This document shows, one piece after another, positions 11,236 to 13,292 of a stretch of 64,000 nucleotides of DNA (within the stretch, counting starts at the first letter, position 1; each line of letters opens with the position of its first letter). Position numbers and translations under genes: made by a program. The stretch comes from Acidobacteriota bacterium (lineage in GTDB: Bacteria; Acidobacteriota; Blastocatellia; Pyrinomonadales; Pyrinomonadaceae): assembly GCA_019639215.1 (NCBI GenBank), contig JAHBSH010000001.1, positions 20,281-84,280 on the forward strand, given 5' to 3'. The notes under the pieces were generated by a model. It ran no database searches, was not told the DNA's origin, and saw only the letters and a list, made by a program, of their open reading frames with translations.

Positions 11236-11408
11236 AAGCAGATCGTTTTGGAGCCATCAAAGTATTCCGTTCTAAACTTCATTTATTAGAGCAAAGTTTT
11301 CTTACTATACAGTCTTTTTTAGTCAGAAAGAAGGTTTTGCACATTCCAGCTGACTGAACCTCTTGGAAGTCGTGTTTTTTTCACAAGTCCTGATATATTA
11401 TTAATGAA

Positions 11409-13292
11409 ATGAGCGTTTACGAGGAACTGACCGATTCACAACAATTTGCCTGCCGCGTGATAGCAGATCATGCGCGTTCGACCACGTTTGCTATTGCCGA
11501 CGGCATTCTGCCCGGCAACGAGGGCCGCAACTATGTTCTGCGAAAGATAATGCGGCGCGCCATCTATCACGGCCGCGAACATCTGGGCCTGAAAGACGCG
11601 TTCTTCTATAAGGTTTGCGACAAGGTCGTTGACGAGATGCAGGACGCATATCCCGAGATCGGTGTCCAGAGAGATTTCATCGGCAAGATGGTACGGATCG
11701 AGGAAGAAAAGTTCGGTAACACTGTCACGGTCGGATTGGGGAAACTGAATGAATTAGGCGTAAATGCTGATGCGGGTAATGATCCTGAGCTTTTTGTTAA
11801 CATTGCAAAGCTCTACGACACATACGGAACGCCGCGCGACCTTATCCGCGTTTTTCTTGAAGAAAATGGGATCGTGTTTGAGGAAGAAGATTTCAATGAA
11901 CGATTTGATGCCGCACTTCAGGAATTACAGCAGCAGTCTGGCGTCGGGCAAACACAGAGAAAAACTGCATTGAGTCCCGTTTATGCCGAACTGTCGGAGA
12001 GCGTCGGCAAGCTGAATTTCCACGGCTACGAGACCACATTTCTTGAGGATGCTGAGGTCGTTGCGATCATCAGGGACGAGCAGCGTATTGATGAGCTAAA
12101 GCAGGGTGAAGAAGGCCTTATCGTTCTTCGCGACACGCCCTTTTATGCCGAATCAGGCGGACAGGTCGGCGATACGGGTTCACTTTTCAATTCGGACGCG
12201 CGCGTAAAGGTCTTGGACACATTTGCTCCGGTCACGGGCGTCAATCTGCATAAATCAAAGGTTGAGCAAGGCACGATTAAGGTCGGTGACAAGGTCACAG
12301 CCTCGGTCGATGCCGTAAAGCGCGACGCAACAAGGCGAAATCACACAGCGACGCACCTTGTCCACGCTGCACTTCGCGAGGTTTTAGGAACACACGTAAA
12401 ACAGGCTGGTTCGGTCGTGGCTCCGGGCTATCTTCGGTTTGACTACACACACTATCAGCCGCTGACAGAGGCTGAGATCAATGAGATAGAGGACATCGTC
12501 AACCGCCACATTCTGGAAAACGAACCGGTTAATACCAACGTAATGGCTATTGAAGAAGCTATGAAAAGCGGTGCGATGGCTCTATTTGGTGAAAAATACG
12601 GTTCGGATGTTCGCGTGCTGAGCGTCGGTGACGGGCAGTTCTCAAAAGAACTTTGCGGCGGAACGCACGTTCGCGCAACAGGTGACATTGGCAGCCTTAA
12701 AATAACTGCGGACGAGGCAATAGCATCAGGAGTTCGCCGTATCAGAGCGATAACCGGTTTTGATTCTTTCCATCGTTTTCGTGAGGACGAAGGCCTTATC
12801 GCACGTTCACTAAACGCATTGAAAACACAGCGTGACAATTTGCCTAATGCAATAGAACGTCTGCAGGAAGAGCTGAAACGAACGCGGAAAGAGGCAGATG
12901 AGCTAAAGATGAAGCTGGCTACCGGCGGCGGGGCGGGCGGACAGGACAGCGATGAGGTGCGTGAGATCGGCGGCGTAAAGGTCGTGGCAAAGATCGTTGA
13001 CGGCCTGGACAAGGGCGGAATGCGGCACCTTTCTGATACCTTGCTGGCACGGCTTAAGAGCGGCGTCGTGATCTTAGGACGGACCGAAGAAGATAAGGTT
13101 TCGTTCATCGTGCGCGTTTCTGACGATCTCACCGGCAAGATAAAAGCGGGCAATATCATAAAAGAAATGGCCGAGACGGTCGGCGGACGCGGCGGCGGAC
13201 GACCTGACATGGCCGAAGGCGGCGGTAGCGAACCTATTAAGGCTAACGATGCCATTGCAAAAGCACTTAAGCTTATAGAAGAAGCGGCATAG
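11409..13292 (+). CDS. alaS: alanyl-tRNA synthetase homolog lacking the class II catalytic core (tRNA-recognition helical subdomain + editing domain + C-Ala domain only)
   Basis: 627 aa. Begins at ...[36 protein letters not shown], which corresponds to about residue 270-310 of E. coli AlaRS (from memory). Editing motifs HTATH and CGGTH, plus [11 protein letters not shown] and C-terminal [15 protein letters not shown], are present. Motifs 1-3 are absent. In-frame TGA at 11391-11393. Confidence 0.85.
   Translation: [627 protein letters not shown]

Follow-up and report, generated by a model that had tools for sequence, protein, structure and literature searches.

What is encoded by an alanyl-tRNA synthetase gene (alaS) from which the whole catalytic core is missing? 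The question is raised by a 64,000-nucleotide stretch of DNA, here called the window, from an Acidobacteriota bacterium of the family Pyrinomonadaceae (assembly GCA_019639215.1, contig JAHBSH010000001.1, positions 20,281 to 84,280). The list of open reading frames (ORFs) over the 64 kb contains one that resembles alanyl-tRNA synthetase (AlaRS), at 11409-13292 on the forward strand. This ORF very probably encodes the large subunit of an AlaRS made from two genes; in relatives of the bacterium the two halves of the enzyme exist as separate genes, which complement each other, occur together in genomes, are conserved and have a history that can be traced.

A preliminary description of the locus, made from the letters alone, had placed the start of this sole AlaRS-like ORF of 627 residues at about residue 270 of the Escherichia coli enzyme, which agrees with the profile models matching from about 263. 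The Pfam family tRNA-synt_2c (PF01411) is matched over model positions 265-550 of 552 only, followed by tRNA_SAD and DHHA1, and the TIGR00344 alaS model over positions 263-847 with 525.2 bits, above the equivalog cutoff of 457.05. AlaRS chains of the PDB align with the ORF from their residues ~263-340 to the end. The polypeptide comprises the tRNA-recognition domain, beta-barrel, editing domain, coiled coil and C-Ala, so that the earlier statement that the region after the break is intact, with HTATH, CGGTH and C-Ala in place, was confirmed. The E. coli residues N303 and D400, which contact the G3:U70 pair of the tRNA (PMC11392972), have their equivalents in N37 and D137, and the editing residues H564, H568, Q584, C666 and H670 in H312, H316, Q332, C416 and H420, all of these being invariant in 32 homologs. 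In its N-terminal part the E. coli reference sequence is numbered one residue differently from published work, and the local sequence contexts fix the equivalent residues unambiguously despite this offset. What the ORF shares with a complete AlaRS is the equivalog score, the Asn and Asp reading G3:U70, the HxxxH and CxxxH of the editing domain, and C-Ala. What its polypeptide lacks is the class II catalytic core with motifs 1-3.

The frame is closed, as described before, by a TGA at 11391-11393, in frame and 18 nt (six codons) upstream of the ATG. The alignment of the C-terminal half (C-half) with AlaRS starts at about residue 8-12, and the N-terminal half (N-half) known from relatives ends 2-9 residues past a conserved ...F(T/A)A.LA motif; the break corresponds to E. 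coli ~262-272, between the catalytic core and the entire tRNA-recognition domain. Both new termini fall in the loop that follows the helix ...DLxxPIxxFTAxLA and leads to the first helix of the recognition domain, and no intein or trans-splicing signature was found at them in the alignments of both halves. A tblastn search of the window with E. coli AlaRS covered residues 274-865 only, which means that no N-terminal core is present within the 64 kb. The interval 11236-11408 had been called AT-rich, devoid of AlaRS coding and bordered by a divergent gene; all three points hold, with 34% G+C, no AlaRS-like reading frame, also by tblastn, and a beta-lactamase-family gene on the opposite strand.

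The catalytic half was found in relatives as a protein of its own. On the soil-metagenome contig L009 a 274-residue ORF with PF01411 ends in ...NYETDLLMPLIDFTAELAVGI* and a C-half starts 506 bp downstream; this C-half (P0124) is a more distant relative, 59% identical to that of the window. The N-halves of L009 and L019, used as queries, retrieved many stand-alone proteins of 267-297 residues carrying only PF01411. The best 120 matches to the L019 query were all 272-297 residues long, some of them encoded on contigs of 3-7 Mb, and the match list of L009 also has longer N-terminal entries, up to ~480 residues, which continue past the junction. At NCBI the N-halves are named 'hypothetical' or 'alanine--tRNA ligase-related protein [Pyrinomonadaceae bacterium]'. 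The N-half covers positions 1-260 of PF01411 and 1-251 of TIGR00344 and is thus exactly complementary to the window ORF (1-260 + 265-550 and 1-251 + 263-847, respectively). Within its ~275 residues it keeps the region of motifs 1-3 and the equivalents of the catalytic residues R69, W170, N212, D235 and G237. Both halves are under strong purifying selection, the ratio of nonsynonymous to synonymous substitution rates (dN/dS) being 0.02-0.07 for the N-half and, for the C-half compared with its 92%-identical ortholog in L001, 0.059 at a dS of 0.80.

The presence of both halves in one genome was observed in GCA_019639175.1, the closest sequenced relative. Its C-half (P0002, 92% identical to that of the window) lies on contig JAHBSK010000003.1 and its N-half (P0504) on the separate contig JAHBSK010000009.1, just after truB/recX, so that two genes of a single genome cover the whole AlaRS without loss, which is what a split AlaRS means. 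A second pair, PYS98788.1 (N-half) and PYS99396.1 (C-half, GCA_003223025.1), probably also comes from one genome, as judged from the neighbouring accession numbers only; beyond these two, protein accessions gave no further pair of halves from the same assembly. The proposal of a natural split at a domain boundary, with the catalytic half elsewhere and no decay, is in this way supported by ~275-residue halves occurring throughout the clade, by the location of one of them on another contig and by the selection acting on both.

As a separate observation, an N-half of the Pyrinomonadaceae type, 83% identical to the L019 query (P0503 / P0512, WP_263975459.1), is encoded on a contig of 6.99 Mb whose label names the cyanobacterium Leptolyngbya sp. 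7M; this record may be mislabelled or derived from a co-culture.

The C-half is also widespread, its form and gene neighbourhood recurring in more than 120 protein clusters from Pyrinomonadaceae. Its best 120 database relatives are all 624-679 residues long and 72-93% identical, and those with named sources come from Pyrinomonadaceae, Blastocatellia or Acidobacteria metagenome-assembled genomes (MAGs), the nearest full-length AlaRS in a search of representatives being only 45-46% identical. The inspection of orthologous loci that had been suggested revealed the same start and surroundings again: in independent assemblies a transketolase gene, a D-Ser-dehydratase-like gene and the beta-lactamase-family gene (minus strand) precede the C-half, and aldehyde dehydrogenase and LigB genes follow it. 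Among 120 independent metagenome contigs with the junction signature, 116 have the same start (MS.YE...FAC after an in-frame stop) and the other four are in-frame re-fusions; the three upstream genes together with a further small ORF, orf133, were found in 50 of them.

For the gene itself the following history can be traced. In the Pyrinomonadaceae lineage the cut in alaS fell in the loop that joins the last helix of the class II core to the first one of the tRNA-recognition domain. The small subunit (~275 residues, with motifs 1-3 and the alanine-pocket residues) stayed at the ancestral truB-recX-alaS site, and the large subunit, with the G3:U70 residues, the editing site and C-Ala, kept the aldehyde dehydrogenase gene downstream; a later rearrangement with its breakpoint in the spacer between the halves put it beside the beta-lactamase-family gene. 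If the two halves form one enzyme, Ala-AMP would be made by the small subunit, which would dock non-covalently on the large subunit via the native interface of the catalytic and recognition domains, and the complex would charge and edit tRNA-Ala like a normal AlaRS. Since the small subunit is without the whole recognition domain, both G3:U70-reading residues would be supplied in trans, and since the genes are unlinked in the lineage of the window, balanced expression would have to come from separate promoters; that of the C-half must lie in 11236-11408.

Several points weigh against the two-gene enzyme. We infer the assembly and joint activity of the halves from their conservation and, by analogy, from the precedent of Nanoarchaeum equitans. 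The N-half of the genome from which the window comes was not seen, 64 kb of that genome being in view, and the occurrence of an extra full-length alaS was judged on at least 80 loci of GTDB species representatives and on no complete genome of the clade. Upstream of 11409 neither a sigma-70 consensus nor a Shine-Dalgarno sequence is recognisable. The AlphaFold2 model of the C-half, calculated from a shallow alignment, had a mean confidence score (pLDDT) of 63, with the editing domain below 50, and was not used.

Three other explanations were considered. Unlikely, although the best of them, is that the halves do form an AlaRS and that their separation has freed one for a second job, such as G3:U70-blind charging of other acceptors by the lone catalytic subunit or service of the lone large subunit as a free editing factor. 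The alpha subunit of N. equitans alone charges minihelices independently of G3:U70 (PMC11392972), the small subunit described here is devoid of the entire recognition domain, and the unlinked genes could be expressed at different levels. Against it, no new partner genes are conserved beside either half, orf133 being missing from the window, and in E. coli the enzyme fails to charge tRNA when shortened to fragments below 442 residues (cited in PMC11392972).

The preliminary description had also considered an AlaX-like protein, that is, a very long stand-alone trans-editing or tRNA-binding paralog in a cell where a complete AlaRS, encoded elsewhere, does the charging. The AlaX proteins (AlaXS, AlaXM and AlaXL) occur in addition to a complete AlaRS, of which they are paralogs; they have an editing domain with HxxxH/CxxxH and, in AlaX-L, C-Ala as well. 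The AlaXM model indeed matches the window ORF in part (1.6e-29), and a second alaS in a complete genome would fit such a paralog, the view through GTDB being one of at least 80 loci. However, the score against NF040865 (AlaXM) is 103.3 bits, below the cutoff of 300, whereas TIGR00344 is above its own, and the ORF shares with AlaX the editing domain but retains in addition the full tRNA-recognition domain with the invariant equivalents of N303 and D400, which AlaX does not have. Moreover, in relatives the two halves stand together in the position of the single alaS after recX, the N-half is as conserved as the C-half, and among the at least 80 GTDB loci no second alaS locus was found in any genome and no complete AlaRS was seen beside a C-half; the paralog is accordingly very improbable. 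The abrupt truncation, the AT-rich upstream spacer and the missing promoter consensus might be read as signs of a disrupted alaS in decay or of a misassembly at 11236-11408; a recent rearrangement or an assembly artefact had been listed earlier. Both readings can practically be dismissed given the same start in 116 of 120 metagenome contigs (the other four re-fused), the same upstream neighbours in 50 contigs and the same neighbourhood in several independent MAGs, a dN/dS of 0.059 and functional motifs that are all intact.

For the two-gene AlaRS, the next question is how the gene came to be divided. The GTDB species representatives were scanned with an alignment of the N-half (at least 80 loci) and metagenomes with a pattern specific to the split junction (at least 120 loci). 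Four forms of alaS were found within Blastocatellia. The gene is unsplit, encoding 897-932 residues with the linker ...LSGRKYEADTQPGFAMRVIADH..., in L013-L016, L020, L021, L024 and L025. The halves are adjacent, in one orientation and 274-1094 bp apart, in L009, L012, L023 and 35 metagenome loci. They are re-fused in frame through scar linkers derived from remnants of the spacer in L116 (935 residues), L162 (954 residues), L152 (943 residues) and L134 (insert of ~110 residues), from which it follows that the inter-domain linker tolerates long insertions. They are dispersed in the fourth form, to which the window belongs: no N-half was present in 25 metagenome loci whose upstream sequence extends for 2 kb or more, and upstream genes of the window type were found in 50 loci. 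Outside Blastocatellia all 64 listed GTDB loci are compatible with an unsplit gene, three of them being probable frameshifts in MAGs and several contigs ending inside the gene.

The flanking genes connect these forms. All unsplit and adjacent loci with an upstream flank stand after recX, usually also with truB on the minus strand, and an ortholog of the aldehyde dehydrogenase of the window follows unsplit alaS directly in L025 (61% amino acid identity) and ~3 kb downstream in L024 (64%); the aldehyde dehydrogenase gene is downstream in four adjacent or re-fused metagenome loci as well. The dispersed N-half has kept truB-recX upstream and now has genes for a response regulator, a methyltransferase and pirin downstream, and the dispersed C-half has kept the aldehyde dehydrogenase downstream and has the transketolase, D-Ser-dehydratase-like and beta-lactamase-family genes upstream. 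The retention of truB-recX by the N-half and of aldehyde dehydrogenase by the C-half indicates that a rearrangement with its breakpoint in the spacer parted genes that were already split, and the interval 11236-11408 is the window's side of this old breakpoint.

Some candidates for further splits were discarded. The ~630-residue matches from other phyla are fragments at contig ends, e.g. P0151 on a 2-kb contig, and not independent splits. In L047, L064 and L084 the interrupted alaS with overlapping frames looks like a frameshift or sequencing error; these are long-read MAGs of Bryobacterales, Acidoferrales and Acidobacteriaceae, all outside Blastocatellia, and they show that automated screens for split genes need caution.

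The spacer between adjacent halves contains genes of its own. In L012 (spacer 11198-11867) a 152-residue nucleotidyltransferase-like (NTase) ORF starts 3 nt after the stop of the N-half and is followed by a 78-residue ORF (orf78). The NTase matches the Pfam family NTP_transf_5 with 3e-5, Aminoglyc_resit just above the cutoff and, weakly, DUF6036 and AbiEii. In L023 (spacer 9899-10469) and L171 a BrnT toxin (Pfam, 1e-21) with a BrnA-like partner takes the place of NTase/orf78. The first spacer ORF starts 0-3 nt after the stop of the N-half. Where an N-half lies upstream, in 39 metagenome loci, the spacer contains the NTase in 12, only remnants of orf78 in 19, BrnT in one and neither in seven, which places NTase/orf78 or its remnants between the halves in 31 of the 39. 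Neither PADLOC nor NCBIfam gave a name to the spacer ORFs. As far as family matches allow, the spacer genes look like cassettes of the toxin-antitoxin type, by a solid match for BrnT and by weak ones for the NTase pair. L009 (6880-7110 and 8673-8683) has a degraded copy of the NTase/orf78 cassette with a run of short G+C-rich hairpins, e.g. gtccgcgtagcggac and cccagcactgaagtgctggg, only one of which was given by the repeat tool; the C-half of L009 is itself broken into 503 + 152 residues.

Every split allele has the same derived junction, with the head MS(V/A)YE-x-(L/F)(D/T)(E/D)(Q/S)(K/Q)(K/Q)FAC; the N-half ends in ...LA(V/A)G(K/I/E)* in the adjacent form and in more varied tails when dispersed. 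The unsplit alleles have a shorter ...GFAM linker, as in basal lineages. An origin of the unsplit alleles by re-fusion was rejected because they keep this ancestral GFAM linker, whereas the true re-fusions L116, L152 and L162 keep the FAC head and scars derived from orf78, both of which are also seen in L134.

Split and unsplit alleles are intermixed, both in identity matrices and in a bootstrapped neighbour-joining tree from which the junction was left out; the phylogenies are simple neighbour-joining trees on partial genes with no species tree alongside. In clade Y (bootstrap 100) the unsplit L025 branches first, followed by ((L197, L195 split), (L158 split, L024 unsplit)) with a bootstrap of 91, and clade X (bootstrap 86) is likewise a mixture. 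The unsplit L024 and the split L158 are 83-96% identical in DNA outside a stretch reaching from ~45 nt ahead of the junction to ~60 nt beyond it, and the NTase/orf78 cassette is present in both clades. The most economical hypothesis is that homologous recombination, acting through conserved alaS sequence on both sides, passed either the junction and its cassette or, the other way round, the unsplit linker from one lineage to another. It is tempting to go further and to regard the break as a mobile allele, in which an NTase + orf78 cassette (or BrnT/BrnA) sits in the inter-domain linker between the flanks ...LAVGK* and MSVYE..DEQKQFAC and was moved among Pyrinomonadaceae by recombination, with a long-lived polymorphism of split and unsplit forms giving rise to re-fusions and dispersal. 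This extension is offered tentatively, as somewhat less likely to be right than wrong; as its corollary, the bare catalytic subunit may have a G3:U70-independent activity of its own.

The only split AlaRS known is that of Nanoarchaeota, in N. equitans made from NEQ547 (alpha) and NEQ211 (beta), which are unlinked genes (PMC11392972; PMC10036535). Its subunits are efficient and G3:U70-specific only together, the alpha subunit alone being weak and independent of G3:U70 (PMC11392972). The likeness to the present case lies in a catalytic N-terminal and a C-terminal (editing, C-Ala) subunit encoded by two unlinked genes. As had been noted earlier, the junction is a different one: Nanoarchaeota have it at about E. 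coli 368 (PMC11392972), inside the recognition domain, a part of which stays with alpha, whereas here the small subunit is the bare core. The hosts differ as well, Nanoarchaeota being tiny-genome archaeal symbionts with many split genes and the present organisms free-living soil bacteria with contigs of up to 3-7 Mb. The coexistence of unsplit, adjacent, re-fused and dispersed forms in one family is found only here and not in Nanoarchaeota.

AlaRS has been said to keep a four-domain 'prototype' architecture throughout biology, the exceptions being the split enzyme of N. equitans and the mini-enzyme of Tupanvirus (PMC10036535). The latter and the E. coli fragment N461 demonstrate that the domains of AlaRS remain functional when taken apart (PMC10036535); unlike in these, it is here the catalytic domain that is cut off from the recognition domain, and no part is missing. 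Canonical AlaRS (TIGR00344), including the unsplit L013, L024 and L025, has the same domains in the same order, the same functional residues and the truB-recX-alaS-aldehyde dehydrogenase locus, and differs in being one polypeptide of ~880-930 residues instead of two. A bacterial synthetase of two polypeptides (alpha/beta) that is a single chain in other bacteria is the leucyl-tRNA synthetase of Aquifex aeolicus, an enzyme of class I with a different break point, for which we know of no reported cassette or rearrangement history. A description of a bacterial split AlaRS was not found in the literature, as covered by openly searchable and not by subscription-only papers.

If the two-gene reading is correct, alanine activation and the reading of G3:U70 reside on different, unlinked polypeptides in widespread free-living soil bacteria, the natural counterpart of the domain dissections on which the idea of an 'operational RNA code' is built. 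It raises the questions of whether a bare class II core can charge RNA, whether specificity can be provided wholly in trans and how the stoichiometry of an essential enzyme is kept. With four forms in one family, the fission and fusion of an essential gene can be followed step by step, as is rarely the case, and a selfish cassette may have driven the process. In practice, pipelines annotate the large half as 'alanine--tRNA ligase' and the small one as 'hypothetical' or '-related protein', by which inferences on genome completeness and metabolism can be misled.

The features of the locus are collected in Table 1.

Table 1. Features of the alaS C-half locus, in window coordinates.
Feature	Position	Strand	Details and basis
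Beta-lactamase-family gene, divergent, new upstream neighbour	10021..11235	-	Pfam; conserved beside dispersed C-halves
AT-rich intergenic region	11236..11408	.	173 bp; 34% G+C vs 48% in the window; contains TGA 11391-11393
AlaRS C-half ('beta' subunit)	11409..13292	+	627 aa; Pfam/TIGR00344 coverage, PDB alignments, dN/dS
Junction 'head', derived N-terminus common to all split C-halves	11409..11453	+	Unsplit genes have ...GRKYEADTQPGFAM here
tRNA-synt_2c, C-terminal part (helical tRNA-recognition domain + beta-barrel)	11430..12314	+	Pfam model 265-550 of 552
Asn37 = E. coli N303 (G3:U70 contact)	11517..11519	+	Alignment; 32 homologs; role from PMC11392972
Asp137 = E. coli D400 (G3:U70 contact)	11817..11819	+	Alignment; 32 homologs; role from PMC11392972
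HTATH, aa 312-316, first half of editing-site zinc motif (E. coli H564/H568)	12342..12356	+	Alignment
tRNA_SAD (second additional domain)	12609..12743	+	Pfam match
CGGTH, aa 416-420, second half of editing-site motif (E. coli C666/H670)	12654..12668	+	Alignment
DHHA1 / C-Ala domain	12975..13280	+	Pfam, PDB alignments
Aldehyde dehydrogenase, ancestral downstream neighbour of alaS	13331..14959	+	Pfam; orthologs after unsplit alaS

In the spacer 11236-11408 the last 23 nt are identical in the relative L001, and an Rfam and promoter/terminator scan of the region gave nothing relevant. The gap between the C-half and the aldehyde dehydrogenase gene (13292-13331) is 38 bp, as in the unsplit L025; in L001 (11977-13474) and L217 (3979-5477) genes for an EamA transporter and an AsnC regulator stand between the two.

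The ORF orf133 encodes a conserved protein of 133 residues with four membrane helices and, in most relatives, immediately precedes the dispersed C-half (L001 9480-9881, L217 1532-1933 and ~35 metagenome loci), with 51-69% identity and no family match; it has been lost from 11236-11408. Further downstream in the window, at 15404-16219, an ORF of 271 residues with a Gly/Ser-rich centre, hydrophobic ends and no Pfam match is positionally conserved in L001 (15662-16462).

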